From Trypethelium eluteriae (Eukaryota): a DNA stretch of 64,000 nt. Each line of letters starts with the position of its first letter. The first letter of the stretch is position 1. Positions 13,951 through 54,858 of this stretch are shown one piece after another. Both the position numbers and the translations under genes were made by a program. Where the stretch lies: the NCBI GenBank assembly GCA_051942245.1, contig JAVECL010000008.1:1-64000 (forward strand), in the 5' to 3' direction. Under the pieces are notes generated by a model, which worked only from the letters and a program-made list of their open reading frames with translations, searched no databases and was not told the DNA's origin.

Positions 13951-15176
13951 GGTGGCTCCATCATTTGCGCAGACCCTTCGATCTTCCCTGTTTTAGACTC
14001 CGTCTGGTTTAAGTTGTTAAATTTTTGCGATTTTTCCCAATTCCGTCTTCATCCCTTTGCAGAATATCTTGATATAATAGCCAAGCGCGCAAGTCAAGGC
14101 ACCTGCACTACGATGCAGGCTGTAGTGTCTCTACATGCAGACTTGAAGATATTACGCGCATCTGTAACCAAGGAGTCTTTCGTGAAGTACACGGATACAG
14201 TCTCAAAACAACAGAGACGATATACAAATTTCATAGTTGGCACTGCTTGCGCCGGGGGTCTTCATTTTGCCTAATTGATTGATGGGTCAAAACAAACATT
14301 AGAGGATAGACTTCTTAGATCTTCTAAGAATACCGAGTTATCACGTGCTGCTCCTAGAAAATCATATCATGCGATCAGGAGGCTGTAGGCGTGGTATATC
14401 AATTGGTCTGCTTTAGCGGTATCGGTGGAGGGTGAAGTGAGACACTCAGAGTTATAGCGACAATGCTAGTGGACAAACTTGTAGTTTTTAGACATATGAC
14501 ATATGACAACAGTGAGAAGGTACATTGGTTTATTTCAAATGATGCGTACAAGTCAAGCTAGAAAGCAAGCGTTCATACAATACTTCTGCATGTCTCTATC
14601 AAGTTTTCAACATTTCAATGACTCACAGCATACTTTAGGCACTCTGCCCAATGCTTTCCCAGATTAACGATCTCATTCCTATCCTCGATTTTTGAAGCCT
14701 TCACAAAATCAATTCGTACTGCTGAGATTTTCGTCGCAATTTCTCAAGGTCTAATATCGGGGTCTTGCAAGTTTTAAGCAATTCAAAGTTGCGGCAAACT
14801 ACACGCAGTGGCTCTGGAGCACTAAATACGGAACAAATTGACAGATTTCCACGTCAACGAAATGAGAGATCTATTCTTTGTTCTGAGAATGTTATGAGAG
14901 CGCTTGGATTTTTTTGGACTCGACGGTCAATCCATGAGTTAGCTGCGTTGATATAGACAAAAAGAGCCGCCATCAATAGAGAGGTATTGAATATTATACC
15001 TTAAACCCAGAGTCGAGCGCGAGTATTTGTTTGTAGACTGATGATAGATACAAAAAATAAAAACCGAGTGTCAGAAAAAGTTGTGGGCAATGTAATTGAG
15101 GGAGGGTTAAGGCTTAGTGCTTGGAATCAGTTATTACATTATATAATATTTTCTAAATGGTTCGCCATTTAAGTTG

Positions 15177-15302
15177 TCCGAGTTGGTCTAGTGGTCATGA
15201 GTGAGCGCTTCCAACACCCTAATGTATTCATCGCTAATTCGTATAGTTTCCGCTTGTCATTGTCAAGCGCGGGAGACCGGGGTTCGATTCCCCGACTCGG
15301 AG
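15177..15302 (+). tRNA. tRNA-Asp(GTC) with a 46-nt spliceosomal-type intron (15201-15246) and an 8-nt canonical-position intron (15260-15267)
   Basis: Acceptor TCCGAGT/ACTCGGA plus G73. T-arm CGGGG-TTCGATT-CCCCG. Anticodon stem TCCGC/GCGGG with GTC at 15256-15258. The D-stem closes only after 15201-15246 is removed. Confidence 0.9.
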
Positions 15303-15303
15303 G

Positions 15304-15313
15304 TTTTTTTTTT
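15304..15313 (+). terminator. RNA polymerase III oligo(T) terminator of tRNA-Asp
   Basis: T10 run starts 2 nt after the discriminator base. Confidence 0.8.
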
Positions 15314-15594
15314 CTTATTCTTATTTTTACTGCCGCTGTGGTAGGTCGAGTTTAGCTGCGGGGTAAAAGGGGCATTATTTCAGTTTTTACCCAACTGCAG
15401 CAAAAAACACCGAACTATCCTGGTATAACTTTGGACAATTATCAACACACTTAACAATCCAACGCCGTACATGTGTATCTTTCCAGACTCCTTCCACTCT
15501 GCACCAAAGAAGCATCGGTCCAGAGTTAAGTAAAAAAGAAAAATTCTTTCTCTACTTTTACAGAGGGAGGGAAAAGCAAAAAGAAATGGTTGTG

Positions 15595-15778
15595 TAGTCA
15601 CTACGAGGATCGAACTCGCGACCTTCTATAGAATTAGGAGTGCGTTTTTAAGGGATAGTTTGGGAGGAGAATCACCTTGGCGTCACAGTTATTATTAGCA
15701 CCACCTATAAGATGTTAGATTTGCCTAAAGAAAAGATCTCCTGGTACTTACGCTCTAAACCAGCTGAGCTAAGCGACT
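15595..15778 (-). tRNA. tRNA-Ile(AAT) with two spliceosomal-type introns (15705-15751; 15623-15675) and a 9-nt canonical-position intron (15684-15692)
   Basis: Spliced sequence AGTCGCT TA GCTC AGCTGGTTTA GAGC G TGGTG CT AAT AA CGCCA AGGTC GCGAG TTCGATC CTCGT AGTGACT A folds as a standard cloverleaf. A T5 run lies downstream. Confidence 0.88.
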
Positions 15779-17039
15779 GTTGATTCTCTGCAATGGTTTC
15801 ATAAAACACTCTATAGTAAAAATATCTCTCCTCTTTAAGCCTCTTCGCTATCGGGTCAATATTACCAGTTGGAAAACCCCCCCCCCGCCACATTGTACTA
15901 TCAGGCAGTGATATACCTTCACAGTTTGAATTTAGGTGCGGAGTAATAAGGACTGTGTTTTACTTTCTACATAACTCTTATAAAAGATTTACAGCCCCTT
16001 ATTATATAAATCAGGAAATATTTTCTTGAAAGAGTATATTCTTTAGCCGATTTACCAGAACACAGATTACCAGCAAAGGACTTAAAGTCGCGGATAATAA
16101 GGCCGAAAACGGTAGCTGATTCACCGGAACATTGGAGCAGTTGATCAAGTAATAAGGACGCACTTATCTAAAATTTGGTGTCAACAGCATTCTTGTAACT
16201 TATTCATGGTAAATCCAGCTTATTTGATAGAAATAGATAGTAACATCATATGAACGAAGGCTCGACAAGAAATTACGCTTTTAACAGGGAGGTCTAGATA
16301 ACTGTGTCCTTATTCCCTGTTGGGGCACCCCTCCACCGTAAGGTCCCTTGTGTACCGTAGACATGTGACCTGAATCTAATGAATTTTTGGTTGTTTAGGT
16401 AACGTTGTTTCTCTAGGATCGTGAGCAGCTAGTCGTAAAATTTGCGTCGAAGTCGGGCTGGAATGGGTGTATCCAAGGAATACGCCATAATTGCAAGATC
16501 AACAAAAAGACATTCTGGCAGCTTACCTTCGGGTTTTCAATAGACAATCAACGCGGGATAGGAGCCTCGCGATCTCGTTACCAGTCTTGAAGAACAGAAA
16601 TAATGGGTGTTCGCTCAACACCCACCAGAAAACAAATAAAGCCAAAAATCTCTTCTTCCAATCAGAGAAAACATACTCCACAAAACCAAATAGAAAAACT
16701 TCCAATCTCGCTCCATTATATAGGAGTCGTGCATAAGCTACATTATGTGTGCATAACTGCAGGTACAGTATCTCTGGGCCAATTAGCACCGGTTCAGAGA
16801 CCGGGTACACACTATGCTTGCGTGGCATTCCACAATGTCGAACCATACAGCAGTCAATCAGCTTACTCGACGAATCCAAGTCTGCGAGATTCAGCGCAGT
16901 CATGTGCTTTTACGAAGTTGTTGCCTCAGAAAGTTGGTGTTTTGGTAAATCTGCTACCAATTTCGGCCCAACTAGCTGCTGCTTTATGTGCCTCCGCATG
17001 TAGAGTCCAAGTACAGAGCAATGGACACCTTGTTCCATC

Positions 17040-21643: not shown

Positions 21644-22325
21644 TAATGCATTACCTGCTTAGGCTGCCGCGGTGATTGGTATCGAACTGCGGCAGCAGCT
21701 ACATCAGGGCGAAAAACTCTGTTGTTCTACATAGCTACAGCTGACTATTTAATGACCTCGGAAATTAAGGAGATGAAGTCTCTGAGGTGGTCGATACCAA
21801 TTCGGGCAGGGATCTACACCACCAAGGACCTAGAAACATCACCTAGTAGAAAAGGACAAAAGGTGAGTTTTCAGGTTCGACAATTGGCCTTTCATTCAAC
21901 TTATGGAGATGATGGCTAGCCAAAGCCTGGCGCTACAAGCACTGCCACATTCAAAAAGTACAGTCTCGTTTCTCTGGAAACCGATTAGAAAAATAGAGAC
22001 ACCTAATATACGGTAACAGCGAGCCTCGTTATGTGCTTGATAAGCTTGAGCATTGGCATGTCTGTGGCCTGGTCATTTCAGCTGTTTTCGTACAGGTCGA
22101 TGCAATATCCATAAAAACCGTAAGCCGACGTACAGTATAGCAGCTCACTGGTAAAAGGTTCCTCCATATAAAATGGCTATTTCGAGCCTTGTACAAGTAT
22201 GAGCTAGGAGCAAGATTGCTTTCACGTATTTTAATTGCTTTACCACCCTTATTTTCGAGCTACCAACGTCGTTTGCGCCTTTTGGATATTCACAAGCCTC
22301 TCCGCGGATTATCGACTCCAGGAAG

Positions 22326-25300
22326 ATGGGATCATTGAAGGTCAGGGGCCAACTCTCCGATAAGCTGCGTGGAAAACTAGTAGAGAGCAAATTCGATAAA
22401 ACCCCGTACGAATTTGTCCCGCAAGGCGCCTTTGACGACATCTTCTCGAGAGTGTCAATCATGGAAGCGATGAATATTACGCAGTCTAATGATGCGCTGG
22501 TAGATTTCGTCTACACAAGGGCACGGAAGGTCTTTGCTACAATGGCTTACATCGAGCCAAAAAGAAAATTTCTGAAAATGGCTATGTCGTGGTTCTTCAA
22601 GAACAACTTCCACGATAGAAAGCTACCCATCGATAAGTGGTCTGGCAAAAAGTTCCGAGACAACGAAGCGAAAGGCATTCTGCATCCTTTCGCATCAATG
22701 GAAGATACCGTCGAAGACGAAGATGATCGATTCTGGACTACGACCAAGATATACGACTTCCAGGAGGCGCAATTCAAATTCCTCGCGCCTGTGTTCTCGA
22801 CAGATAAGCCCAGTCACGATCTTTGGAACTGCACCATACCTTTCGAGGCGAAGGACGTCACCTATGCCGAGGGCTCGTTCGGCACGGTATCTAAATATAC
22901 GATCCACAGCGATCACGTTCAGGATCCAATGAAATCGGTAAGCCAATCATCGCAAGTGGCCATTTACCGGTCTCCACGCTGACACACTGTAGGACGCTTC
23001 ATATTCCCATGCTTTCGCTGTCAAGGAGCTCAAGGTCGATAATGACCAGGATCGCCAAAAGGTGGCCCGAAATTGGGCGTCTGAGGTGAAGGCCATGGCG
23101 ACGATGAATAAGCTTGACCATAAAGATCACATCGTCCGCTTCATTACCGCCTTTCGTCGCGGCACGCCGGAGGAACCAGAACATTACTTGATCACCGAAT
23201 GGGCGGATGGTGGTAATCTACACGATCTGTGGAAGCAGACACCCAGACCCCAAGAGACGAACTTGAACGTTCAAGAGGTGATCAAGCAACTATTGGGGCT
23301 TGCAGAAGCCTTAAATGCAGCTCACTTTCTGTCCGATGGACGTGCCTACAGTGGTGCATCGTATCGCCATGGGGATCTCAAACCGGCGAACATTCTGTGG
23401 TTTAAGGAGAAAAGCAAATTAGGCACACTCAAGATTTGTGATTGGGGCTGTGCCAAGAACAAAAAAATTGTGACTGCTATGCGCCACAGCAAGACTTCGG
23501 CTGAGTACGGCACTCGACGCTACCAGCCTCCAGAGATTGAGACTGGAATGAGTTCGATGCTTCCGGGATCCCAAGAGAAGCGGATTTCTCGGCTATACGA
23601 TATTTGGTCCATGGGCTGCATCGCTCTCGAATTCATCGTATGGCTTCTTTACGGTATCGATGGACTGGAAATGTTCAATAAAAGTATGAAGGGAGATATG
23701 AGCGACGGCTCACCATTCTATCAATTAAGCTATGTTGGGGGTAGGAAGCTGGCCAGAGTCCACAATATCGCTACATATTGGATGAATCACATGGCCGAAG
23801 ATCCCGCCTGTAGGGTCGGTACTACCGCCCTTGGTGACCTTCTCGAGATCGTCCAGAGAGGTCTTCTGGTTGTAAAACTCCCTCGGAGAGGAGGTACCTT
23901 TGCCGAGAATGGCTTTCAACGACCTTATATAAGCCCTCCTACGGCGCGGCGACACGGACTTGGTAGTGGTGAGATCCATAGCGAGTCAGCGCCCAATTGG
24001 ATGTCGACCACCCAGGGAAGCCCTTCAGCAACCGTCCCAGAGATAGACTTATCCTCAGCAGGGCTACCTGAAGATGATTTGGAACCGCAGTTCGGTATGG
24101 TAGGACCCGAACGACTTCGTGCTGACCAGCTGCGTGACAGGTTGGATCATATTGCGACAGCGGACGAAAAAGAGAGCTACTGGTCTACAAAGCCAGGGCG
24201 ACCGGTCTCTCACATTCCCACACATATATATTCCGATGAATCAGTTCCTGACTCTCTCAGCAGACCTATACAGGACCAGGTAGATTACGACTATCCCAAG
24301 CTTGACCCTCACCACTGGGGATTTGAAACGGATAATAAGCTTGCGACTGAAGTTTTCTCTATCTTAAAAGATAACGACCACTTTCCCATTCCTAGGACCT
24401 GCATAACATCGAATCTTTGCGGTGAATGTACGAGACTCCGTGACGGCTTGTGGGATTTGTTTTTCGAGATCTCCTATGACCTAGACAGCCTTGAGACCAG
24501 GGGCAAAGCTCATAAGTGCGACCTGTGTGGTTTGCTCTGGAGAACATGCGAAAGGAATTGGGGGACAATATTTGACAAAGTTCGGTTTGAGAGATCTGGA
24601 TGCTCGTTGACAATGAATGGCGGACGCCTTCCTGTCCTCTCAATTTTCCGCGATATCGGTAAGTCACACATGACACCTTCAAGGTGTTGATTTGCAAGCA
24701 CAAGCTGACTTCAAGTCTCTAGACTGCAAGAGTCCAGCAACTGCAGATCTTCAGATTGGATTTGCGGAGCTTCCAAAGGCTGGAAGTCCGACGCACCTCG
24801 AAGTAGTTCGCAAGTGGCTCCACGATTGCGACCATCACCACTGTACATCAACATGCAAACCAACCCAGCGAGAAAATAGACTTGCATCCGGTACGTCAAC
24901 ACAATTGCCTACCCGGCTCATTGATGTTGGCATCGATGGCGACCATACGGTCCGCCTTTGGGAGACGAATTCCCAGGATTTCGTTACCCAGGATACTGGA
25001 GGATGGATTTCGTTATCTCATCGATGGGGACTGCGATCTCACCTTTGCACTACATCGGACAACGTTAGAGAGCATCTCACGGGAATGAACCTAGAAGCGC
25101 TACCTGCTACATTTAAGGACGCTGTTCTGGTCACGCGCGCCCTTGGGCGGCGATATCTCTGGATTGACTCAATTTGCATCATTCAAGAGGGAGACCAAGC
25201 CGATTTCGAGCAGGAAAGCAAGTGCATGGAAGATGTCTACAGTGGCGCATATTGTGTCATCGCAGCCACCTGCGCCACTGGTCACAACTCTGGGTTTCTC

Positions 25301-26358
25301 AAGCCACGAAGCAAGAGAGACTATGTCGCCCTTCGCCGCGAAGCTGAGAGCGAAGCGCCGTTCTATGTATGCCAGACAATCGATAGCTTTCAAGAGCACG
25401 TGCTGGAAGACACTTTGAATAGTCGCGGCTGGGTGTTGCAGGAGCATGCACTTGCCCGTCGAACCGTCTTCTTCACGGAGCATCAGACGTACTGGGAATG
25501 TAGCCACGGCGTGCGATGCGAGACTATGACTGAATTACGCAAGTAAGTAGATTCGCGTCATTGGACTTAATGATCCTTTTGAGATAACTGATACCAACAT
25601 TGCATTGTAGTGTGTCGGCGCAACTGCTAGGAGATCCTAACTTCCCCCAGATTCTCGAATCAGCCCCCCAGGGGGAGAGGATCATTCGTTATCAGGAGCT
25701 TTACCAGATCTATTCACGTCTAGGTCTTTCAGACGCTTCAGATCGACCCAGAGCTATCAACGGCCTCGAAAAACGACTGCTGCGCACCATGAACGTGAGA
25801 GGTGGTTTTGGGATATTCGATGCGGGTTCAACTAAAGGACTACTTCGCCGAAGTCTCTTGTGGCATCGGGGATCTGACACACCCAGTTTGACTCGCATCT
25901 CATGGATCACCGTCCCATCATGGTCTTGGATGGCCTACGCAGGTGGGAAAGATACGAATGGGAAAGAATTTCCTGGAGGAATCAACTATTTCCAACTGAG
26001 CTTTAATGGATTCGATTGGGAAGATATTGAATCGCCGTGGTCGCATCCCAAGAATGGCGAGTCAAGCGATAAGCTTATCGCCAAGGTTCGAGAGTTCAAG
26101 CAGAGCGCCGCACGAACACGTGAAGATTATCTCATGTTCGACACTCCTGCAGACACGAATAGAAAGAATGCCAAGTGTATTATCTTAGGGATTCAAAAAG
26201 GCCCGATAGCCTCAAGTGAAAAACGACATTACGTTCTCGTGGTCGTTCCAACGGTCCGTTTCGATGATAAAAACACCAGGATATATGAGAGAGTTGGTGC
26301 AGGATATCTACCTGGAAGATGCTTCACCGACGGTTCTGTGCTGGCCAGCATTCAATAA
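22326..26358 (+). CDS. Protein kinase-HET domain fusion protein (~1281 aa); 4 exons
   Basis: Exons 22326-22937, 22993-24658, 24723-25542 and 25611-26358 join in frame. Kinase motifs EGSFGTV, FAVKEL, HGDLKPANILWF, DWG, YQPPE and DIWSMG. HET motifs LPTRLIDV, LSHRWG, YLWIDSICIIQ, VYSGA and RGWVLQE. Confidence 0.92.
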
Positions 26359-27902: not shown

Positions 27903-29327
27903 CTATTGAGAAAGAGGGTTATCACGAAGATACTCTCGGCTCTGATAAAGAGTTAGCGATAGACTCAGAACGACTTGGTTGAAACAACTCACCACTGTAA
28001 TGGTATCATACCCGTATAGCCATTTGAGCAACGCTGGCGACGGATATATAGCTGCCTCGTCTCCCACCTGTGACGCTTGCAGCGCTTTCCGATCTTCACT
28101 GCTCAGCTTCAGATACTCAGCGAGCTCTTCTGTTGCTTTCCTCAACCCTTCATTCCGAGCGGCAACAGCATCATTGTACGACTTCGCTGTGTAGGAGCTG
28201 ACATTCCGTTGGCTGATCATCGAGATCTCCCACACCCGATCATTCCGTCGCTTCCGGATTGCCTCGTACGCTTTGACTGCTGACTTGAGCTCGGAGACAT
28301 CTTTGCAGGCTGAGATGCATTCGCAAAGTGCGGCTGCGTCTTCCACAGCCATATTCGAGGCACTTGCTGCTGCGGGAAGCATGGCGTGCGCAGCATCGCC
28401 TAGTAATACTATGCGACCATTCTCGCTCGAGTAGGTTGGTAGATCGGGAAGATACACGATTGTCCATTTCACGCATTTTTTGATCGAACTCAAGAGCTCC
28501 GGTACAGGGGAGAAGAAGTCTTTGTAGGCGTCTACAAGCTCTACGGGGTCGACCTCGGGGTTGAAGGTGTCATGAGCCTCTTTGTTGACGGGTCGATGGC
28601 AAGGAGCTACGATGTTGAAGGATTTCCCTTGGTTGCATGGATAGCAGAGCAAGATCCCGCTCGGACCGAGGAAGAAATTGGTGTCGCCGTTGTTCGATAG
28701 TGCTGCTGTCGGTGGAGCTGTGAGCATATGGTCTCGATCAGCAAGACAGCGATATGCGTATTCGTCCCATACTATAGGTACAATGTCCCGGCACGAAGCA
28801 ATTCCAGCTCGAGCCTTGGACCATATACCGTCTGCGCCGACAATCAGATCGGCTTTAAAGCACCGACCATCGGTCGTATACACGGTCCCAGTGTCTGCGT
28901 CGACCTTGACGGCTTTCGCTGAGAACACGAGTTCTGCTCCGTGAGACACGGCACTTTCTGCCAGGAGCTGCTGATAGTGCGGTCGATAGATAGTCCAAAG
29001 CGGAGACCCATATATGTCCTCGTACCATGAGTTGATATTTCTCGGATGCTTGCCCAGTGTTTCACCTGCATCGTACGTTCGGTACTGTACCCAAGGTGGC
29101 TGACAAACAAACTCTTCGAAACGCGCTCGTAGACCCCACGCACAGAGTATTCGAGATCCATTTGGAGAGATTTGAAGACCGGCCCCTAGTTCTGAAAGCG
29201 CAGGACGAGCTTCAAGAACGCAGACACGGTGACCTCTGCGAGCTAGCCCTAGAGCGCTGGCACAGCCACAGATGCCGGCGCCTATGACAATTATCGAGAA
29301 TTTGGGCTGAGTATCTGGGTCTCTCAT
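27903..29327 (-). CDS. FAD-dependent monooxygenase (salicylate hydroxylase-like)
   Basis: GAGICG Rossmann motif, GAGLQI, DLIVGADG and LLGDAAHAM. Probable in-frame 51-nt intron 27942-27992 (GTGAGT..GCTAAC..CAG). Confidence 0.92.
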   Translation of the reverse strand: MRDPDTQPKFSIIVIGAGICGCASALGLARRGHRVCVLEARPALSELGAGLQISPNGSRILCAWGLRARFEEFVCQPPWVQYRTYDAGETLGKHPRNINSWYEDIYGSPLWTIYRPHYQQLLAESAVSHGAELVFSAKAVKVDADTGTVYTTDGRCFKADLIVGADGIWSKARAGIASCRDIVPIVWDEYAYRCLADRDHMLTAPPTAALSNNGDTNFFLGPSGILLCYPCNQGKSFNIVAPCHRPVNKEAHDTFNPEVDPVELVDAYKDFFSPVPELLSSIKKCVKWTIVYLPDLPTYSSENGRIVLLGDAAHAMLPAAASASNMAVEDAAALCECISACKDVSELKSAVKAYEAIRKRRNDRVWEISMISQRNVSSYTAKSYNDAVAARNEGLRKATEELAEYLKLSSEDRKALQASQVGDEAAIYPSPALLKWLYGYDTITVVSCFNQVVLSLSLTLYQSREYLRDNPLSQ

Positions 29328-30472
29328 GTTTTACCTTGTCTAAAATCTTGAGCGGCGACGAGAGGGAAAAAAGTACCAGATGGAACGCTCCGGTCACGGT
29401 TTCCTCTATGAATTATTTTCCCCGAAAATCGACATTTCCCATTGTTCTACCAGCAGGGTCCAGCTCATGAGGATGCAAGATATTCCAGAAGGCAGAAACC
29501 ATTATCTGAGGAATTCAACCGTAATAGATGGTCCACCGTGGTTTCCTCCTGCCCCGCAATTGCAGGTTCCTTGCCGTGTGAGGAGAACTCGGACGGACAC
29601 GGACGGAGCCACTATCCGAGGCTTTGCGAAATCGGAGAAGCACAAATTTCTAAAATTAATTATATTATAATTTTATAACAATATATCAATAGGGTATTAT
29701 TTTATAAATTTAAACTTTCTAATTAGCTAGAAACAACTAGGGGTGCTCTTACATATATACTGTATCAAGAGCTACCTAAGGAGCTTCGTGAAACTGTGGT
29801 GTGCAGGTGGTGGGCCCGTGCAGGTGGTGGGGGAAACCTCTAGCGGCGACTTGAGCGGCCGAAACGAGTAAAGTACCGGTTATCACTCTACCCAGGCACA
29901 GATTGTTATTGTAGTAAATACCTTAATGGCATGATTATTCCACGCAGCGTTGAAAGAATCTCCAAATCCCTCTGGTACCTAAGCGTTCGATATTACAGTC
30001 CTCTGGGCAGTCCAGCTCCCTTGAGGTTGACTTACCTAGTCTGTCATAAGATACGGCGTCGGAATCACCGAGTAAGTGCCCGACCGTAGATTATCGCCTA
30101 GACTAACAACAGTGACTAGAAGAAGTTGTGTGAATATTTTTGGGGTTTCGGAATTATCTGTCTTTATGTTGCGCTGTAGCATTTCCGGCCAGCTCTTTTC
30201 TTCGGTGTGACCGAGCCCTGTAGAGATGAAAATAGAGAAGCCAACAACAGTGGCTTTCCGACAGCACGAAATGACGTCACATATGTTTGTGATTGCAGAT
30301 CGACTTTCTTTAATAGCCACTAGTCGTCGTTGCTGGCATGAAGTCGTACGTAGATGGTGAGCGTCGTGAGATTGATATACAGCCACTGTTCCTCGCTCGC
30401 TCTTTCCCCCCCTCGTATGCTATGCTCTTACATACCGAGTTGACAAAGCCTACCTCTTCTCGATCTCACGAA

Positions 30473-35375: not shown

Positions 35376-36710
35376 GCATGGTGCTCTTTAATACCCCGAT
35401 CAGGGGGTTCAGGAGTAGGCATTGTCGGTGATGATACCGGTAGGGCGAGCTGGGAAGGCGTTTACTAGAGCCTGGAGACAGGAGCCATCTCATACTCCCT
35501 ATAGTTCATAGCATCTCAGAGCGTTGAATAGATTGACTGTCGGTCCGCTTGGAGATAATAGCTTGCTTAAATGAAAGAGGGCTGTTATATACAGACTTGA
35601 GCGTGACGGTGCAATCACTTGTTCGTGTAAACATGTATCTCTCTGCCAATGCTCCCATGAAACCGAGTCTGGATCTTGCAGATTGTATCCGTGCAAGTAG
35701 ACTCTCAAGCTACGGAGGAGAGTTACGGTCATTGGACAAAAGTGTCCGCGTGCTCGTATGGGAGATTTGGTGAGGGTTGCCTGAGGACCTTTTTCGTAGA
35801 AGTCCGCACCACTCCGTGCACGATCCACCTCCGTGCACGGTGGGACGCGTTTCATCTCCACAGCTTCATAAGGCTATAATTCAACAACGAACTGCTTAAT
35901 AAACTAGATAATTAGATAGATAGATAGTAGAGAACTAGAAAAATCGAATGCGCTATTTAATTTACTCCATAGACTGTTGTGGTAGGCGAATTTCGCGCTG
36001 AGAGCGCGAAACACGAGAAATTACCTCAACCACCAGAGATTTTACCTCTGCAGGTGCGACTTCCGAATTAGGCTGTTTTGAGGCCTTCTGTGTTTTTGTC
36101 TGCTTCTGTTTATAGTGTTTTGACTTATTTTGAAGCTGTTAAGCTGCTTGTTTTGCTTTAAAAAAGTCCTGCCGAATCTGAGCTTTTTTAGTTTAAGCCT
36201 GCTGTCGCCAAATTTGAGCTTCTTCGCGCTGTTGCTTTTGCTGCTGTTTCTCCTGCTCTTTAATCTGCCTATTTAATTATAACTGCTTTTTTTGAGCTGC
36301 TTTTTGCTGTTTTTGCTGTGCTTTTTCCTCATCTAAACGCTTTTATTTATTGCGAAATAATTAAACCTTTATAGGGGTCAAAATTTGAGCCTTATTAAGC
36401 TTATTATTAATAAATACTTTTTTATTTAACTGTTTGGTGTTCTTTTTAGTTATAGCTTACTAAAAACCCTTATTTTTAGCGCGGAGAAGGCTATTCTCTG
36501 CTTAAATAGTGTTAAGAGATTAAAGGAGCTTTTTTATTACCAGATCTTTAGTTTAGATAATAACTTGTTGTAGCTTAAATAGATTAAGGGGAATTTAAGG
36601 TATAAGCTTTATTAAATTGTTTTTTAATTTTAGAGATAATAATTACCGCAGTATGCCTAACACGCACTTAGAATTAAACAGTTAAAGCCCTACAGCCTCC
36701 CATCTACTAA

Positions 36711-39700
36711 TGTTACGAACGCTCCTGACCAAGGACGCGTTGGAAGTAGCCACTACTTGTAGTGCACCAATCGCGTAACACTAAGCGCGTCTCACAACAG
36801 GGGTAAGCGAGGACGTGGTATGGACACCTCAACCATCTCGCAATGAGATAAGCGAGATTTTACCTTGCAAAGAGTGAGATAATATCTCGCCCTCCTTGCT
36901 GCAATATTAATAAGAAAAAAGGCTGTAATAAAGAAGGAATAAATATTTAAGGAACTGGATTTTAGGCACACTTTTATTCTTCTTTTTGCGTTTTATTACT
37001 ATTATTATACCCAGCTGTACCTATAATTAGTTATAAGCCAAATTAAATAAGACCTTATTTATTATTAAGTTGTTTAAAGCTTAGTAACCCTTTTTACATT
37101 ATTAAATCCTTAATACTCCGCTCTTATGTGAAAACTCCTGAGACCCTTTTATGTACCTGCTACAAGCTGCGCTTATACCAGGGGGTATAGGCTTATAACA
37201 TAATAAAACGCCCTTAAGGATGAGTTAATTAAGATCCACTCTGCGGCTGGAGTCCCGCATTAAAGCCCTATTAAAGGAAGGCAAGGTGGGATAACCTAAT
37301 AAGTACTTTAGGGAAAGAAGTAAGTTGGAAGAATGGCTATGCTAAATCCAACTTTACTTCTTATTTAAAAGAATTCTAAATAATTAATAAACCTTAATAG
37401 CCTTATTATACTTAAGAGGATAAGCCCAATACTGGATAAAACCCAAATTAACTTTATATTTTAATAACTTAAAAAACCCTAATAATCTTTTTGTAAGATT
37501 CCCTTAATTTAAGAAAGAGCTTAAATAAATTTTTGGGATTTTTAATAAAGTTAAGATAGCGGAGTAAGCTGTTTAAAATTTAATATAAAAAACTTTAATA
37601 GCGGATTATGCAGCTAAGTTCTAAAAATATTCTAACAAATTAGAATGGAATAATAAAGCATTACAACCTATGTACTGGAGAGAACTTAAAAATAATATTA
37701 AGGATAAGCTAATATATTATAGTGGCTTTATTAACACATTGCAAGAATTTATTAATGCCTTAATTAAACTGAATAATAAACTTTACGCAAGGCGTATAAA
37801 AAAGCAATTAGCCCTATACATTCCAGTAAGAAGGATTAAAGGAATTACTTAGCATTACAGTAATAATAAACCAATAAAAGGAGTTTAGTACTCCAACCTT
37901 GCGCAAAATAAAAAGGAAAAAAGTGCTTAAACAAAAAAAAAATACTATACCTATAGAAAATTAGGGCATATAACAAGAAATTATTAATCCAAGAATAAAG
38001 TGGATCACAAAAAAGAATTTAATATAGTAACCTAAGTCCACCTAAGAGAAGATAAAATTATTATTAACAAACCAATAAGTAATAATAATATTAAGAACTT
38101 AAATATTTTCCAGTATTAAACAATCAACAATAAATCCAATGCAGAGGAAAAAAGTGCTTTATAAGAAGAAGTTATTAACCCTATAAATAGCTAAGAGGAC
38201 TTATAAGCACCCACATACACAATCCAAGGAAAGGAAGCAACTCAGGACAAACACAAGAATTATGTGCATTTAGTATTAAAAATAAAGGATCACCCAGATT
38301 ATTAACTCCTAGGATAATGCCTACTGCAAGAATGCAATATTTATAAAATGTATGTAAGTGTAAAACCTAAACTTTTACCAATTATGTGGGATTAAAAGCA
38401 AAGGAACTTCTAATATTAAAAAGAAGTCCATAGACTCTCATAATATCCCAACTATAATTAAATAATTGGATAAGAGGAATGTTAAAATAATGCGTGTCTA
38501 AAGTATTAATAGGCAAAAAATTAGAATAAAAAAAAGTTATAACACTAGTTCCAATATTTTATAGCATGTGGGATAAGGAACTATAAATTTTACCAAAAAT
38601 AAGAAAGTAATTATAACTTATTTAATAAAAAATTCTGCAAAAAAAAGGAGACATGCTTATACTATAAACCAGGCAGTAATATAGCTTAAGGAAGGAGCTA
38701 ATCCCAATAAGGACTGTGTCCAAAACCGCCCTACAAACTATTTATGTGTAAAATAATAAGCTGGCTAAAATATATTAGCACTATGTGTGTTAAACACCGC
38801 CAAAAGTAAGCAGACTATTATGCAAAATATTAATGCAACAACCTAAATTATTATAAACATTGCTTAAATTATAAAAGTATAAAACCAGAATAGCAGGAGT
38901 GCTATAAAACTGCTAAGAAGATAAGGGAAGAAGAGGGAAAAATTAATAACTTCTTATAAAGGGGTTATAAGTAAGTTATAATATAACATCCCTTAGCAAA
39001 GCAATAATAGGATTGTTTAAAATTAAGGTTAAGATTAAAAATTAATAAATTAAAGCAATAATTAATAGTAATATATTAATAAACATAATAGCAGTAATAA
39101 CTACTAAAAGGATTAAACTTAATACCAAGGAAAAAAAAAAGTTATATAATTTATATAGAGCTACTGGATTATAACTTGCAGAATAAAGATAAGTGGATAT
39201 TAAAACAGAACTTATTTTCATAATTACGCAAGGGCACACTAAAGAAATCCAACTTAATATTATAAATCTAATTAGGTATAATATTATACTTAAATTACTA
39301 TAATTGCGGAATTATAACCCAGATATTAATTAGGAAATAGGGGAAATTACATTTTATAGGTGCAAATACAGCATTGCATGGGACCCCGGAGGAGCAGCGA
39401 ATTGCTTTAGGGATAAAATAAGGATAAGCTATAATGTGGCTTTAATATTAATAAATAAGGATAACTAAAAAAAAATAAACTAGATCCGGCGTATCTAATA
39501 CTTTAATAAAAGTAAAAGGTTAACTAAGGGATAACATAAAGCGTAAAAACGCTAAACTTATAATAATACCTCTTAAATACAAAAAGTATTTGCCACTCTT
39601 TAAGAAAGGGAGAGCAGACTAAGTACTGCCTCCATATTAACTGTGGGATTATAAGATAAAACTAAAGCTAAGGAAGCAACCCACTTTTGGACCTTTATAT

Positions 39701-42700
39701 CCTTAGTTATAAAAAGAACTAGAGATGCTTTAAGAATAGCTAAGAGAAAACCTTAAAAAAGGATTTATCCAAAAATTAGAGTTTTTAGCAGGACATCTTA
39801 TACTTTTTGTTCCTAAGAAGAATAAAAAACTGCGATTATGTATTAATTATCAGAAACTTAATGCTATTATAATTAAGAATAAGTATCCATTACTTAATGC
39901 GGCAGAACTAAAAGACTGCCTAACTGGAGCAAAGTAGCTTATATTATTAGATTAAAGAGATGCCTATAATTCTATCCGCATAAAAAAAGGTAAGAAATAA
40001 AAAACTGTATTTAGAATAAAATACGGACTATTTAAATCCTTAGTAATACTATTTAGATTAATAAACGCACCTACAACCTGTTAAGAATAGATTAATAATG
40101 CATTACGGCAATATCTAGACATCTTTATAATTGTATATCTTAATAATATACTAATCTATTCCAAAATAAAGGAAGAATATATAAAATATATAAAAATAGT
40201 ACTAAAATATCTAAAAAAAAGGAACCTTAAATTATTACTAAAGAAGTGTATTTTCCACTAAAAATAAATAATATTCTTAGGGTATGTAATAAGAAAGGAT
40301 TAAATTTAAATAAAGCCAGAAAAGGTATAATCAGTCTTAATATAGCTAAAGCCAACAAATATTAAGGGGGTTTAAAGTTTCTTAGGATTTATAAACTTTA
40401 ACCAACAGTTTATCCCTAAATATTCCAAGAAAGCAAAATTACTTACAGACCTTATAAAAAGTAAGCAATTATTCCAATAAGAATAGCCATAAAAAAAAGC
40501 CTTTAAAGTTATTAAAAAAGAGATTACAAAAGACCTAAAACTGATAATCTGCAACCCAAAGTTATTACTAAAGCTTAAGACAGATACTTTAGATTTTATA
40601 ATAAGCGCTTATCTCTTGCAATGGGTAAATAGGAAGTGGAAACTAATAGGATATTACTTAAGAAAAATAACTCCTGCTAAACTAAATTACAACATTTATA
40701 ATAAGAAATTGCTGGCAATAATAGCAGCAATAAAGCACTAAAGAGCGTATATAAAAGAAACACCCAAACTGGATATTTATACCAACCACAAAAATCTATT
40801 AATATTTATAACAACAAAATAATTAAACTAAAAACAAGTTAGATGGGCAGAACTCCTTAGACAGTATAAGTTTACTATATATTACGCACCAAAAAAAAAA
40901 AATAGAAGAGCAGATGCTTTAAGTTAATAAGAAGACTATTAAGGAAATAAAAAAGTGTACTAAGCAGTGTTTAAAAAAAAGAATAATAGCACTCTTAAAA
41001 GCATTTCCTAAAAGTTTGGATTAATTCTTAACATCTTAGAAGATAAAAATAAACAGTTCCTTATTATTACTTAAAAATTACAAATTTTAAATAATAAAGT
41101 TAACCATTATATTTAAAGATATCACAATAAACCGCGATATGGACATCCTAAAATAGCACAAACACTTAAGAATATATCTTAAAACTGCATTTTTAATAAT
41201 ATAAAATAAAAAGTCTAAAGTTATGTGGCAAAATGTGATTACTGTAAAAGAAATAAGCACAGTACCCAAAAAAGAAAAGGTACTATCTAACTAATTTAAG
41301 CACCAATAAGGCCTTAGGAGCAGATTATAATAAACTTTATTACAGACTTACCTGCGTTAAAGCATCTGGTAACCAGAGAGGTTTACACAGCAATCTACAT
41401 AATAGTATACAGACTGATAAAGTATACAATACTAATTCTATTTAACAAGAAATATGGAATAAAAAAAACAGCATAAATACTCCTTAAAAGAGTAATATTA
41501 TACTTCAGATTACCTATCTTAATAATATTAGACCAAAATAGAAGGTTTACAGCTAAATTCTTCCAAACATTAATAGCAAACTTAGGGACTAAAACTAAGT
41601 TATTAATAGCGTACTACAAAGAGACTAACGGATAAACTAAATGGATAAATTAGTTACTGGAACAATTTTTGAGATATTATATTAATAATCTGCAAAATAA
41701 TTGGGTATTATTATTACCTATAGCATAACTGTGTATCAACACCAAAGAATCCAGTACAACTAAGTTTGTGCTTATCTAAGGACTAATAAGATATATACCA
41801 TTATTAATTCAACTAATACTTATTAGAATAATATTAGCATTGGGAGAAGACTGTAGAAAAATAATAAGATTAGTACACAATAAAATGGCTAAAAATATTA
41901 AAAAAAGAAATAGGAAGTTAACTAAAAATAACAATAAAGTAAATAAACCTTAACTAAAGGAGGGGGATAAAGTATATTTACTTACAAAAAATTTGAAAAT
42001 AAAAAGACCCTACAAAAAATTTAGTGTAGTAAAGGTCAGTCTATTTATTATTAAAGAAAAAAAGAACAAAGTTAATTATAAGTTAAACCTTCCGCAGGAT
42101 GCTTAAGTCTACCTGGTGTTTTATTTATCCTTATTAAAATCAGCAGATAAAAGCATATTATATGCAGAAATATTTAGCTATAAATTAAAAAAAGAACATA
42201 AGTTTAAAGTAGAAAAAATTCTACAAAAGAAAAACAAAAAGTATTTAATAAAATAAAAAGGATATCCTAACTCAGAAAATACTTAAAAAACACAAGGAAT
42301 GTTATCCAAATATAGAGGAAAAATACAATAATACTTAAACTTTAAAAAAGGGGGAAAACCTACCCATAGCAATTATATCTTTAACACTAGCAAAAGTTTC
42401 TTATAATAAAAAAGAAAAACTAATAGCAGCAGCAGTAGCAAAACAGTTGTCCTTATTAACCACACCCTTATTTAGCTTATTAAGAGCATGTTTAGTTTTC
42501 TGTTTTGCGCATTCCTTAGCTTAATAAAGAATCTTTTTATAACGCATAAGGTGAGCAAGCACTTTGGCAAGCTCTTCCTTATTCTTTAACACTCTTTTAG
42601 CGTATTCCTCTTAAGTGCGATTAAGAGAAGACTATAATAAGTTTACACACAGTTTCCCTATTTTTACATACTTAGAACACTTAATATAAGACTCCATAAT

Positions 42701-43379
42701 AATGCAGATATAACCGCGGAGGAGGCAGAGGTTATAAGGCGACAGAATTAGGAGGCTAAAGTTTTTAATCTTTAAGGATAAATAGTGGCGATAAAGTTTA
42801 GAGGAAGATATCTTGCTAAATAAATAAAAGCGGGGTTACTTTTACTTATATTTTATGTAAAGACATGTAACTAAGGAGGAGGGGACTAATATTATAAACA
42901 CTCCTAACTAAGGACGCGTTAAAAGTAGCTATTACTTATAGTGCACCAATTGCGTAACACTAAGCGCGTCTTGCAATAGGGGTAAGTAAGGACGTGGTAT
43001 GGACACCTTAACCATCTTGCAACAAGATAAGCAAAATCTCACCTTGCAGAGAGTAAGATAACATCTCACCCTCCTTGCTATAATACCAGCAAGAAGGAAG
43101 GCTATAATAAAGAAGGAATAAATATTTAAGGAACTGGATTTTAGGCACACTCTTATTCTTCTCCTTACATTTTATTATTATTATTATACCCAGCTATACT
43201 TATAATTAGTTGTGAGCTAAATTAAACAAGACCTTATTTATTATTAAGTTGTTCAAAGCTTAGTAACCCTTCTTACATTATTGGATCCTTGACACTCCGC
43301 TCCTACGTGAAAACTCCTGAGACCCTTCTATGTACCTGCTACAAGCTGCGCTTGTACCAGGGGGTATAGGCTCATAACA
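36711..43379 (+). mobile_element. Full-length RIP-inactivated Ty3/Gypsy (chromovirus-like) LTR retrotransposon, 6669 bp
   Basis: 490-bp LTRs 36711-37200 and 42890-43379, TSD ACTAA, polypurine tract before the 3' LTR. RT remnants (YLNNIL for YLDDIL), then RNase H/integrase and chromodomain-like remnants (~42200-42290). Very TpA-rich. Confidence 0.93.
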
Positions 43380-46300
43380 ACTAAGTATATTTTTTAGTGT
43401 TATTACACGCTTAAATGCAGGCTAAAAGAGGTTAAAAAAGTTGTGTTTACCTAAATTATTAATATGCTATAAGTTATTAAGAAACTTGTCTCATTCTTTT
43501 AAGTAATAATGCGCAAGTGGATAGAAAAGTTTAATATCTAATAGCTAAAGCCTATAAGTTAAATAGGACGGGAATATAGCTAATATAATGCTGTATTTAT
43601 TGCTTAGGTTAATAAACTGCATATTATAATAGCTGCTGTAACTATTAATAATAAGTAGATGTAAATCTTGTCTATTTTTAGCCTTCTCTCACGTGTGTTG
43701 GTGGAATAGCTCCTGGAGCTTGTATGCTCTTTAGGCTTAAAATTATTAATCCAGCTATATTTAATATTGTTTGTTTTTAAGGCGTAGATAATATGTGGTA
43801 GTAAAGCTGTCCCATCCATACAAATTAAAGCAATTATTATAATCTATTTTTTTAAGCTATATTGGCCTACGCTGAGTAGTTTACTGTTCTCCTAAGCTTG
43901 GACATTAAAGACATGTTATGAGCCTATACCCCTGGTACAAGCGCAGCTTGTAGCAGGTACGTAGAGTGGTCTCAGGGTTTTCACGTAGGAGCGGAGTATC
44001 AAGGATCCAAGGGGTGTAAGAAGGTTACTAAGCTTTGAACAACTTAATAGTAAATAAGAACTTGTTTAATTAGCTTATAACTAACTATAAGGTACAGTAA
44101 TAATAATAAAATGCAAGGAGGAAAATAAGAATGCGCCTAGAGTTAGGTTCCTTAAATATTCATTAATCCTCCATTACAGCTCTCCTTCTTGCTGGTCTTG
44201 CAGCGAGGAGGGCGAGATGTTATCTTACTTCCTGCGAGGTAAGATCTCGCTTATCTCGCTGCGAGATGGTTAAGGTGCCTGTGCCGCATCCTCGCCACTT
44301 CTATTGTGAGACGCGCCTAGTGTTACGCGATCAGTATACTACAAGTAGTGCCTACCTCCGACGCGTTCCTGGTCAGGAGCGTTCGTAACATAAATAATCC
44401 ATATCTTGTTCTAAAAGCAGTTTTTTATTTCTTACCTTTTTTTATACGGATAAAATTATAAGCATCTCTTTAGTCTAATAATATAAGCTACTTTACTCCG
44501 GTTAGGCAGTCTTTTAATTCTACCGCGTTAGGTAATAAATACCTATTCTTAATTATAATAGCATTAAGTTTTTAGTAATTAATATATAATTGCAGTCTCC
44601 TATTCTTTTTGGGAATAAAAAGTATTGGATATTCTGCCAAAAACTCTAATTTTTAAATAAAGCCTTTCTTTAGGTTTTTTTTTTTTTTTTTTTTTTGCTA
44701 TTTTTAAAGCATTTTTAATTCCCTTTATAATTAAGGATATAAGGGTCTAAATATGGGTTGCTTCCCTAGCTTAAGCTTAATCTTATAATCCCATAATTAG
44801 TATAAAGGCAAGGCTTTTTTTGCCCTCCCTTTTTTAAAGAGTAGTAAGTACTCCTTATATTTAAAAGGAATTATTATAAGTTTAGCGTCCTTATACTCTG
44901 CACTATCCTTAGGTTGATTTTCTACCCTTATTAAAGTATTAAATATGCCAGACCCAGTGTTATTTTGATTATTCTTATTTATTAACATTAAGGCTATATT
45001 ATAGCTATTTATTTTATTCCTAAAGCAATTTACTGCTCCTTTAGGGTCTTATGTGGTGTTATATTTACATCTGCTAAACATAATTTCTCCTATTTCCTAA
45101 TTAATATTTAGGTTATAAGTTCTTAATTATAATAATTTAAGTATAATTTTATGCTTAATTAGGTTTATAATATTTAATTATATTCCCTTAATATGCCCTT
45201 AAGTTATTATAAAAATAAGTTTAGTTTTAGTATCCACCTTTTTTTGTCCTGCAAATTATAATCCAGTAGCTTTATATAAGTTATATAGCTTTTATTTTAC
45301 CCTAATATTAAGTCTAATTCTTTTTATAATTCTTACTGCAATTATATTAATAACTGTATTATAATTAATAATTGCTTTAACTTTTTAATCCTAAATTTTA
45401 ACTAAAATTCTAATTATTAAATTAATAATTTTTAAGGATGTTATATTATAATTCTTTTATCTCCCCTTTATAAGGAATTTATAGCTTTTTCCTCCTACAA
45501 TATTATATCCTTAAAAGTTTTATAGCATGCTTATTATTCCGGCTTTATCTTATTATAATTTAGGTAATATTTATAGCAGTTTAGGTTATTGTATTAATAT
45601 TTTATACAGTAATCTGCTTATTTTTAATAGTGTTTATAATATGCGATATTAACACATAATATCTAATTTATTATTCTGCATAATTATAAGCTGTATACAT
45701 CTCTGGGTGCCAGTCCTTATTTTATTTAAATATTTCCTTATTTAGGGTTGTTTAATCCATAATATGGGCAAGTTTTATAATTTTTGTAGAAATTTTTATT
45801 AAGTCTAATATATTCTTTTTCCTGCTTTTAATAATATTAGCAATTTAGATTATTATAGGCAGTAAAGTGTTATTATTTATGTTTAAGCTTCTTTTTTTAT
45901 TAATTTTTTTCCCACTAATATTTTTAATAATTATTATTTTGGCATTCTTCCTATTTGACTATTTAGTTATAATTAAGATATTACAAAAGTTTATGGACTT
46001 CTTTTTAATATTAGAAGTTTCTTTATTTCTATCCTTATATAATTATTAGGAGTTCTGGTTTTACCCCCATATAAACTGGGTGTATTTTATAATCTTATAA
46101 TTTATATTATTTCAGCAACTTATAATCTGGGTAATTCTTATTATTAGATACTAAATGCGCGTAAATTTTATATCTTTTTTAAGTTGCTTTTTCTCCTTTA
46201 ATTTTATATATGGGTAATTTTAAGTCCTTTTAGCTATCTGCAGGGTTAATAATTTCCTCCCATAAAGTATCTTCTTCTTTTGCTTTAGGTTTATTATTAA

Positions 46301-47101
46301 ATATTTAATATTAAAATATATTTAGTTTCCTTATATTATTATTACTTATTTATTTATTAATAAAGATTTTATCTTCTCTTAAATAGATTTAGGTAGCCAT
46401 ATTAAATTCTTCTTTATAATTTACTTTATTTTGGGATTAGCAGTTCCTTATTATGTGTCTGGTTTTTTTACATGCATAATTTTTTTTTTTATTTTAAGCA
46501 CTTTTTATCTTCTTACTTTATGCAAAATTAAAGTATTAAACTTCTTTTATTAATTTATTATTATTAAATTGGATATATTTTTTAGTTTATCTTATTAGGA
46601 TGTATGTAGCTAATTTTTTATTTATTTACCTTGTATAAAGCTTATTATCTAGTTTAATAAAGGCGCTTATAAGTTTTTATAATATATTAATTAAACCTTT
46701 ATAATGCATTAATTTATTCTTTATGTTATTTTTAAGCCCTTTTTAATACATAAGTTATAGCGCTTTATTATTTTATTTTAATATATTTAAGTACTCCTAA
46801 AACTTTGCTGCGTACTCTGCTGCTAAAGTTTTTTATACTATTTTTTAAACTGCTCTTTTTATTATCTTAACCTTATTAAAGATTTTAAAAATTTATTTAA
46901 GCTCTTTTTTAAATTAAAGGAACCTTATAAAAAAACCTAAAAGGTTTTTTTAATTATTAAGATATAAAGTTAACTTTAGTTTAACCCAGTATTATGCTTA
47001 TCCTCTTATGTATAATAAGGCTACTAAAGCTTATTATTTTTTTAGAATTCTTTTAAACAGAAAGTGAAGTTAAATTTAGTATAGCTATTTTTCTAACTTA
47101 T

Positions 47102-48084
47102 TATTACGAACGCTCCTGACCAAGGACGCGTCGGAGGTAGTCACTACTTGTAGTGCACCAATCGCGTAACACTAGGCGCGTCTCACAATAGAAGTGGCGA
47201 GGTTGCGGCATAAACACCTTAACTATCTCGCACCGAGATGAGCGAGATCTTACCTCGCGGGAAGCAAGATAACATCTCGCCCCCCTCACTGCGAGACCAG
47301 CAAGAAGGAAAGCTGTAGTGGAGGACTAATGGATATTTAAGGAGCCTGGTTCTAGGCGCATTCTCGTTTGTTCCTCCTTGCGTTTTATTATTATACCATA
47401 CTGTACCCTACAGTTAGTTATGAGCCTAATTAAACAAGTTCTTATTTGTTACAAGTTGTTCAAAGCTTAGTAACCTTCTTACACCTTTGGATCCTTGACA
47501 CTCCGCTCCTACGTGAAAAAACCCTGAGACCATTCTACATACCTGCTACAAGCTGCGCTTATACCAGGGGTATATGTTACGACCCAGCCGCGTCAAGGCT
47601 GAACGCCATCTCCTTTGTACTTGCTGCAAGCGTTCCACAGATAGGTCGTAACGAGCAGAGATCACGTGACTGATTAGTAGCGAGAAGCTACAGATCAGGA
47701 TAGAGCGATCTGGAGCGATCACCCACGGATCACAGGTTATCACACCGATCAACAGCGATCAATCAGAGATCAGTAGAGATCTGATCAGAGGAGGAACAGC
47801 TGTGATCGGGAGGAATCACAAGTATATATATGTAGGAAGGAATCAGCTTAACTAATTCCCTCGCGTTTTATTACCATACCAAACTGTACTTACAGTTAGT
47901 TACGAGCCAAATTGAACAAGACCTTATTCAGTACAAGTTGTTCAAAGCTTAGTGACCCTTCTTACATCATTGGATCCTTGACACTCCGCTCCTACGTGAA
48001 AAAACCTGAGACCCTTCTACGGACCTGCTACAAGCCGCGCTTGTACCAGGGGGTATAGGCTCATAACAGTATAGGCTCATAACA
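47102..48084 (+). mobile_element. Solo LTR inserted in the gag region of element 2, itself interrupted
   Basis: LTR sequence 47102-47574 plus 48074-48084, flanked by TSD CTTAT. Confidence 0.88.
47575..48068 (+). mobile_element. Variant or chimeric solo LTR (494 bp) nested in the solo LTR
   Basis: TG...CA ends and TSD GTATA. The 3' part matches the family LTR; the 5' ~280 bp does not. Confidence 0.85.
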
Positions 48085-50318: not shown

Positions 50319-50581
50319 TGACCACAACACCCCACTCTGCTCCGTAGGCAGCCTGCTGAGAGCCCTTAAGAAAAGTGATTAGGTTGAAAGAAATGCTCTC
50401 CTTCACCTGCTCTATCTTACAGCAAATCGTCCGCCACATGGAACATCAGTATCCCATCACAACTCCCTATCCGAATCGACTCTCCTCAGCACACCATACG
50501 TAAATGATACCCTGACGCCAAAGACGCTTGTAGCGCCGCGGATTCCCGGAGAAACATAGGCCTCCGGTTTATATCGCGGAG

Positions 50582-53500: not shown

Positions 53501-54858
53501 GAACTAGAATGAATGGCAAGACGCCGCTGTATGCGGCATCGGTACGGGATATTGAGAAGGCCGTGAAGCTATTACTAGAAAGGGGTGCTGATGTCAACAA
53601 ACAATGCGGACCTGATGGTACCGCGCTATATGCTGCCTCTTCGAGAGGTCACGCGAGAATAGTTGAGCTACTGCTGGACAATGGTGCCTATATCGACGCG
53701 CAAATCGAATTCGTCAATCACGTAACTCCGCTATATTCTGCATCTTCACAGGGTTATGAGAATATCACAAAACTGTTGCTGGATAGAGGTGCCGATGTCA
53801 ACATACAATGCGGAACTGATGGCACCGCGCTGAATGCTGCATTTGTGCGAGGTCATCAGGTGATCGTTAAGCTGTTGCTAGATTCGGCCGCCGATATCTA
53901 TACACGAGGAGCAGAATATGGGAATGGGCTCCCGGTGGCAATTGTGTATGGTCGCAGTGAGGCCGTCGAAGTCTTGCTACGCAGTGCAGCAAATGGTACA
54001 TTGCAGAGTTCAGAGTGTAGTATTGCGCTGCAGCTAGCCTCGGCACAAGGGTCCCTTGAAGTTGCGAGGCAAATACTATTCGGGAATTCGGGGCGATATA
54101 CCCTCGCTAATGCGCTGAAAAATCGCCAGTCTCTTTCCATTAAACCTTCGTTGGAAACGTACGAGGAGATTATCAAGATTCTGCTAGGTAGGGGCGCCGG
54201 CATCAGCTTCCAGATAGAGTCTGGTAGCTTCCTCAATAAATATCGCGATCAGATCACGAAACTGCTGCACAAAATCAGAGCTGAAGTTGATACGGGGAGC
54301 GGAGGCAGAGAAAGGGATGACGAGTCGCAGACTGCTATTGCGAGAGGTAACGAAAGTAGTACCTCGGAGTACATGTCACCAGACAACAGCATAGACGTTG
54401 ATAAACGAGACTGGACAGGTAATGCTACCGACAATCATGCCCTTCAAGATTATCAGATGCATTTGTCGCGCCTCGAGTTACGGAACAAGAAGCAGATGGT
54501 GAGCTGGACCCTCGAATCGCTACTATATAGTGGAATTGATGTGAATGCAGAAGGCGGAAAATTTGGCAATGCGCTGCAGGTGGCATCTTTGATGGGTAAA
54601 GAGGATTGTGTTCGGCTGTTACTTGATCAAGGTGCCCTTGTCAATGCGAACGGCGGAATTTGCGGTACTGCGCTACAAGCAGCATCATTGGCAGGCCGTG
54701 CGGATGTCGTCCAGATGTTACTCGATAGAGGTGCTAACGTTTATGCAAAAGGAGGAATATGTGGTAGCGCGCTGGAGGCCGCGTTGTTTGTTCGGGCCTC
54801 TAAGACACAATTTTCTTGGGTCTGCTCGTTGCAAGAATCTCGGTCCACCGCTCTATGA
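50582..54858 (+). CDS. Fungal NLR, HET-NACHT-ankyrin architecture, with an apparent +1 frameshift at 52996-53000
   Basis: HET: MRLL..YAILSHTWG..WIDACCID..RGWTLQELIAP. Intron 51318-51405. NACHT: WIKGKPGSGKST, IIIDALDEC, GIFMWV, FIHESVRDF. Ankyrin repeats (GTALYAAS.RGH..IV.LLLD.GA) follow in a different frame. Confidence 0.9.

Follow-up and report, generated by a model that had tools for sequence, protein, structure and literature searches.

Whether a transfer RNA can depend on the spliceosome for its maturation is the question raised by a short locus in the window, the whole 64-kb stretch of DNA analysed here. Spliceosomal introns are presented, in the passage concerned of a 2025 paper, as a feature of RNA polymerase II (Pol II) transcripts that is unrelated to the introns of tRNA (PMC12530127). 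The hosts of spliceosomal introns named in the relevant part of a 2018 review on U6 are U6, U2, U5, U1 and rRNA, tRNA not being among the hosts listed there (PMC5855946). The locus in question was read in the initial annotation as a tRNA-Ile(AAT) gene of four exons, interrupted by two inserts of spliceosomal type and by one canonical tRNA intron. The coordinates and lengths given in that reading proved to be exact, and both ARAGORN and the comparative data agree with it. The anatomy of the gene is listed in Table 1, together with that of a neighbouring tRNA-Asp gene and with candidate introns found elsewhere in the window.

Table 1. Features of the tRNA-Ile locus, of the adjoining tRNA-Asp gene and of candidate coding-region introns in the window; L001 and L002 are two metagenome loci used for comparison.
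Feature	Position	Strand	Length (nt)	Description
tRNA-Ile(AAT) gene, whole	15595..15778	minus	184 with inserts, 75 without	Length without inserts given by ARAGORN on the joined product
tRNA-Ile exon 1	15778-15752	minus	27	Acceptor stem 5' strand, then D arm with A box; almost the same in L001 and L002
tRNA-Ile insert 1	15751-15705	minus	47	Spliceosomal type; between tRNA positions 25 and 26; GTAAGT...TCTAAC...TAG
tRNA-Ile exon 2	15704-15693	minus	12	Position 26, anticodon stem 5' strand and loop to position 37; anticodon AAT
tRNA-Ile insert 2	15692-15684	minus	9	ATAACTGTG; canonical 37/38 site
tRNA-Ile exon 3	15683-15676	minus	8	Position 38, anticodon stem 3' strand and first two variable-loop bases
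tRNA-Ile insert 3	15675-15623	minus	53	Spliceosomal type; variable loop 45/46; GTGATT...CCTAAT...TATAGAAG
tRNA-Ile exon 4	15622-15595	minus	28	Remaining variable loop, T arm with B box, 3' strand of acceptor stem and discriminator A
T-rich tract 3' of tRNA-Ile gene	15572..15586	minus		TTT C TTTTT GC TTTT; putative Pol III terminator
tRNA-Asp(GTC) gene	15177..15302	plus		Convergent with tRNA-Ile, 292 nt away
tRNA-Asp exons	15177-15200, 15247-15259, 15268-15302	plus		
tRNA-Asp spliceosomal-type insert	15201-15246	plus	46	D arm; GTGAGC..CTAAT..TATAG
tRNA-Asp canonical insert	15260-15267	plus	8	
T run directly 3' of tRNA-Asp	15304..15313	plus	10	Putative Pol III terminator
Candidate coding-region intron	22938-22992		55	Joins open frames; GTAAGY, CTGAC, YAG
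Candidate coding-region intron	24659-24722		64	Joins open frames; GTAAGY, CTGAC, YAG
Candidate coding-region intron	27992-27942		51	Strict-motif match
Candidate coding-region intron	30072-30119		48	Strict-motif match

In its unspliced form the gene escapes the usual search tools. The raw 64-kb window yielded no tRNA with ARAGORN in default mode and, against Rfam, neither a match at the gathering score nor a tRNA at E<=10, the low-score Rfam matches consisting of a 23-nt tmRNA/T-arm fragment on the tRNA-Asp gene and two chance matches. Scanning the window for a T arm accompanied by a matching acceptor stem revealed only two tRNA-like genes, those for tRNA-Ile and tRNA-Asp. When all three inserts are cut out of the former by their coordinates, ARAGORN calls the product as tRNA-Ile(aat) with a regular class I cloverleaf, which has an acceptor stem of seven pairs, the D, anticodon and T arms, the anticodon AAT and standard base pairing throughout (21/21 pairs). 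When only inserts 1 and 3 are removed, the same tRNA is called with a 9-nt anticodon-loop intron at the canonical site; this call, together with the inserts at the same site in the two comparison loci, identifies insert 2 as an ordinary canonical tRNA intron. Such calls carry a background, however, and ARAGORN alone does not pin the borders of the gene, because a tRNA was also called for 18/500 controls in which three deletions of these lengths were placed at random. The predicted borders rest on the GT and AG ends of the inserts and on the homologous sequence that runs uninterrupted in L001 and L002. The earlier remark that the internal exons measure only 12 and 8 nt, and that a spliceosome acting first would see them as a single exon, is numerically correct (12 + 9 + 8 = 29 nt).

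The two comparison loci were retrieved by a metagenome scan with a pattern composed of the tRNA-Ile D arm, GT, 25-55 bases, AG and a piece of the anticodon stem; the D-arm pattern gave no locus in a scan of viral contigs. In each of the two, a complete tRNA-Ile(AAT) gene is interrupted by one insert at 25/26 (GTAAGT..CTCTAAC..CAG, 55 nt, in L001; GTGAGT..CCTAAC..ATAG, 54 nt, in L002) and by another at the canonical site (16 and 13 nt, respectively). T runs follow the gene at the same place as in the window, the first runs in L001 being only T4. An exon of BCCIP, a family confined to eukaryotes, lies on L002. Exon 2 is identical in both loci, over a stretch that was fixed by the search pattern. 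Sequences were compared exon by exon, as a whole-gene MAFFT alignment misplaced the 3' part owing to the extra insert of the window, and it is the tRNA gene alone that matches between the window and the two loci, the flanks being not alignable. The 25/26 intron of the D arm is probably old, its site being common to these two other fungus-like genomes. Upstream of the tRNA-Ile gene, L001 also contains direct repeats at 900-1438 that are offset by about 190 nt (900-1243 versus 1093-1438) and share 69% identity.

The type of the inserts was assessed on the five that lie outside the canonical site, namely inserts 1 and 3 of tRNA-Ile and the D-arm inserts of tRNA-Asp, L001 and L002. All five open with GT(A/G), four with a G at +5, and all five contain a CTAAY branch box whose branch A lies 9-12 nt before the end; the acceptor is YAG in four, and the lengths fall between 46 and 55 nt. 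For the L001 and L002 inserts, and for these only, the GT and AG ends were imposed by the search pattern, which left the branch box and the remaining donor bases free. The donor of insert 1 fits the fungal U2-type consensus GTRNGT, in its CTAAC box the branch A stands 10 nt from the end, and the acceptor is TAG. Both in size and in signals the two tRNA-Ile inserts (47 and 53 nt) resemble the candidate coding-region introns of the window (48, 51, 55 and 64 nt), which were chosen by motif and frame continuity and are predicted only. With regard to the idea of introners, no further copies of the three tRNA-Ile inserts were found within the 64-kb window, where the best other matches span 9-14 nt. 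Inserts 1 and 3 may be described as short U2-type spliceosomal introns, sized and signalled like the mRNA introns of the genome.

Insert 3 is the weakest part of the case for spliceosomal introns: its donor is weak (GTGATT has no G at +5 and fails GTRNGT), its acceptor is AAG and it is absent from both L001 and L002, the sequences of which run straight through the 45/46 point. Two potential acceptors follow its CTAAT branch box, TAG at 8 nt and AAG at 11 nt from the branch A. The 5-nt direct repeat AAGGT occurs at both borders, so that six placements of the cut give the same product; only one of the six has the form GT...AG, with AAG rather than YAG as the acceptor. The AAG acceptor alone restores a variable loop of 5 nt as in the two relatives. 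Use of the TAG, 3 nt upstream, would leave a variable loop of 8 nt in a 78-nt product, which is still called by ARAGORN. In yeast, a distance of only 8 nt between branch point and AG may be too short for splicing. This spacing would favour the AAG, and we infer that insert 3 ends there and not at the TAG, which lies closer to the branch. The border repeat fits a recent insertion or simply an AG|GT proto-splice site. Insert 3 may thus be proposed as a lineage-specific intron gain flanked by AAGGT; if this is true, it represents a clean recent gain for which the ancestral sequence is known to the base. A scan of genome contigs for inserts in the variable loop returned four loci, all from Luteimonas bacteria, which were rejected as chance matches to the spacer between an ordinary tRNA-Val and an ordinary tRNA-Asp gene.

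The tRNA-Asp gene gives ARAGORN a tRNA-Asp(gtc) of 72 nt once both of its inserts are taken out, and mRNA-type inserts are thus present in 2/2 of the tRNA-like genes of the 64-kb window. The start of its 8-nt canonical insert repeats the anticodon-loop bases TTGTCA.

Judged from sequence and comparison, the locus is likely to be a working nuclear tRNA-Ile(AAU) gene, the precursor of which would lose three intervening sequences of two kinds by way of the spliceosome and the tRNA endonuclease. This tRNA probably needs both of the splicing machines of the cell. Inserts 1 and 3 would be removed by the spliceosome via a lariat, and the 9-nt insert 2 would be cut out by the tRNA splicing endonuclease, followed by sealing by tRNA ligase. 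Position 25/26 and the variable loop are sites at which an extra arm can protrude with the folded tRNA body left intact. An ordered splicing pathway is plausible for this RNA, in which the spliceosome would act before the endonuclease. Predicted folding says nothing on this order, since the minimum free-energy structure differs from the cloverleaf in the unspliced RNA (enforced cloverleaf, -32.2 kcal/mol; minimum, -35.7 kcal/mol) as well as in the mature product (-20.9 and -21.9 kcal/mol, respectively). A wider reading can be offered only tentatively, its chances appearing to us slightly below even: in filamentous ascomycetes the spliceosome may be a regular tRNA-maturation enzyme that acts on RNA polymerase III (Pol III) precursors and removes both old (25/26) and new (variable-loop) introns, and on this one 184-nt transcript it would hand a 29-nt internal segment over to the endonuclease in a fixed order.

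The transcript is presumed to be made by Pol III, given an A box and a B box that are both intact, though some 144 nt apart, and the T runs 3' of both genes. There is one mild argument against this assignment, the single T4 run inside insert 1, as T4 may terminate Pol III in some organisms. The same run could hinder Pol III, which would speak for a different origin of the RNA, in which the two convergent tRNA genes are transcribed also, or only, within longer Pol II RNAs, are spliced co-transcriptionally by the spliceosome and are then freed as tRNAs by RNase P, RNase Z and the endonuclease. Recruitment of the spliceosome is normally coupled to Pol II, and A/T-rich TATA-like stretches are located about 30-40 nt upstream of both tRNA genes, where they would suit either polymerase. 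Such an origin is nevertheless unlikely. Apart from the intact internal boxes, runs of T5 and T10 stand directly 3' of the genes, and a run of five or more T occurs in none of the five non-canonical inserts. Moreover, fission yeast splices its U6 RNA, a Pol III product, according to the part of the review that concerns it, so that Pol II is not required (PMC5855946).

Less probable still is that the locus is a dead gene. The tRNA-Ile sequence would then be a pseudogene broken by insertions, perhaps only since the arrival of the 53-nt insert; nothing would be spliced, and the likeness to mRNA introns would be incidental or a property of ordinary fungal intergenic sequence. Inserts in the D or T arm of eukaryotic tRNA genes have mostly been taken as signs of pseudogenes, as stated in the relevant section of PMC4090602, and insert 3, with the donor and acceptor described above, is unique to the window among the three genomes. 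The strict intron motif (GTRAGY..CTAAY..N4-13..YAG, sought on both strands of the 64-kb window) is also not rare as such, with four matches against a mean of 3.2 and a maximum of 7 in random Markov sequences. Two of those four matches, however, coincide to the base with non-tRNA inserts of the two tRNA-like genes, the splice signals stand exactly at the borders in all five non-canonical inserts, and the adjoining tRNA-Asp gene has the same build. The conservation of the exons also argues against a dead gene. The spliced products share 66/75 identical positions between the window and each of the two loci and 72/74 between L001 and L002 (88-97%), whereas the inserts at the shared D-arm site (32/55, 34/54 and 39/55 identical positions, against shuffle means of 27-32) have bodies that are near random. 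The cloverleaf pairs are standard in all three genes (21/21), and pairs 1-72, 6-67 and 52-62 have changed on both sides without any pair being broken, reading A1-U72, C6-G67 and A52-U62 in the window gene, which also has an extra U in its D loop; the nine varying columns among the three sequences comprise these six stem positions and three loop positions. Within the limits of three sequences, exon conservation and compensatory stem changes thus support selection on the tRNA-Ile structure.

A DNA run from a second strain (X1) bears on the same point. One contig of 13,462 nt covers 15000-15807 and contains all of the inserts, with no indels and no joints. Three differences could be placed within these 808 nt, one in the flank (15156), one in the tRNA-Asp insert (15218) and one in insert 1 of tRNA-Ile (15749). 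The initial annotation had named substitutions accumulating in the exons as fast as in the inserts across strains as evidence that would speak against it; the outcome was in its favour, with 0/3 of the placed differences in exons and 2/3 in mRNA-type inserts, although these numbers are small. The change at 15749, a G at +3, converts GTAAGT into GTGAGT, which leaves the donor in agreement with the consensus. Two more differences, within 30 nt of the contig end (15778-15807), are unplaced and reach at most the first base of exon 1. Further upstream, about 100 nt from the tRNA-Ile gene, a run of some ten G is found at 15871-15886 (minus strand), and the contigs of the second strain break up between 15807 and 15877 into several short alternative pieces. 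This break-up near the G run is probably an assembly problem at a homopolymer or variable tract.

The bulge-helix-bulge structure, taken here as two 3-nt bulges with the cut sites, a 4-bp helix between them and flanking helices, was found in none of the five non-canonical inserts, the best central helix reaching 2/4 pairs and the flanking helices being poor. It is therefore highly improbable that inserts 1 and 3 are non-canonical introns cut by the tRNA splicing endonuclease at a bulge-helix-bulge-like structure, as in archaea, Cyanidioschyzon merolae and nucleomorphs: tRNA genes with more than one intron, in the D arm and at variable sites, do occur in those lineages, with excision demonstrated by RT-PCR in nucleomorphs, but the inserts described here carry a GT, a CTAAY branch box and an AG at fungal distances, all useless to an endonuclease, and in eukaryotes the enzyme takes the tRNA body as the point from which it measures to the anticodon loop (PMC4090602, in the sections on these points). 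The likeness to those systems, as far as the same sections describe them, lies in the presence of two or three introns per tRNA gene, in their location in the D arm or at other non-anticodon sites and in their being missed by standard gene finders; the difference is that their introns, down to 3 nt in length, rely on the bulge-helix-bulge and the splicing endonuclease, in place of which spliceosomal signals are present here (PMC4090602). With respect to the canonical eukaryotic intron, insert 2 is identical in site and shows no difference, whereas inserts 1 and 3 occupy other sites and are of another type.

The reading that we prefer, a tRNA precursor processed by both machines, has its nearest precedent in the mRNA-type introns of fungal U6 snRNA genes (Tani and Ohshima, 1989, 1991; Canzler et al., 2016; summarised in part of PMC5855946). 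There too the host gene has Pol III features and encodes a small non-coding RNA, and the introns are short, with canonical donor, branch and acceptor signals in an otherwise unconserved sequence. Fungal U6 genes contain up to four introns, some at sites shared by descent and others species-specific, as in the account given in that review (PMC5855946), and likewise here. Unlike U6, however, a tRNA is not a part of the spliceosome, and reverse splicing at the catalytic centre, the usual explanation for the U6 introns, is thus not directly applicable. The tRNA-Ile gene differs further in having an endonuclease-type intron as well, which would bring two unrelated splicing systems to bear on one 184-nt precursor.

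Bhattacharya and colleagues are also said to have described, in 2000, spliceosomal introns in ascomycete rDNA, in many cases from lichen-forming species. The parallel is that these too are short introns of GT-AG form, lying in a Pezizomycotina gene for a structural RNA that Pol II does not make; there, however, the host is rRNA transcribed by Pol I, and no second type of intron shares one small RNA with them. The full-text literature searched, in which most subscription journals and the bioRxiv supplements are not represented, yielded no account of tRNA genes with spliceosomal introns. What is known, then, is that genes for non-coding RNAs can contain spliceosomal introns; what would be new is the tRNA host and the combination with an endonuclease-type intron.

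Should this reading be true, a spliceosome-dependent tRNA would tie the capacity for translation to mRNA splicing, and the spliceosome would be able to act on very short, highly structured and probably Pol III-made RNAs. The precursor would also provide a natural substrate, with exon pieces of 12 and 8 nt, for the study of exon-size limits and of the order in which two splicing systems act. Genes of this build would remain unseen by ARAGORN and Rfam, and the counts of tRNA genes in fungi would therefore probably be too low.

Several other features were observed in the window. On the plus strand, 22203-26358 contains, in adjacent open frames, a protein-kinase exon and then a HET-domain exon, linked by the candidate introns of 55 and 64 nt; the two may belong to a kinase-HET fusion gene of the kind that serves non-self recognition in fungi. 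A 12-kb block at 36001-48000 has a G+C content of 0.29-0.30, compared with 0.41-0.53 elsewhere, and AT skews that are strong and of opposite direction in the two halves; it resembles an AT-rich island of the repeat-induced-point-mutation type. HET and NACHT-ankyrin genes are located just beyond this block (50534-54858), and the presence of such proteins suggests that the DNA comes from a filamentous ascomycete. On the minus strand, 28115-28178 gives a weak C/D-box snoRNA-like match to Rfam sR28 (17.1 bits, E = 4.9, the gathering score being 39), which lies inside an FAD-monooxygenase reading frame (27903-29330) and is probably due to chance.
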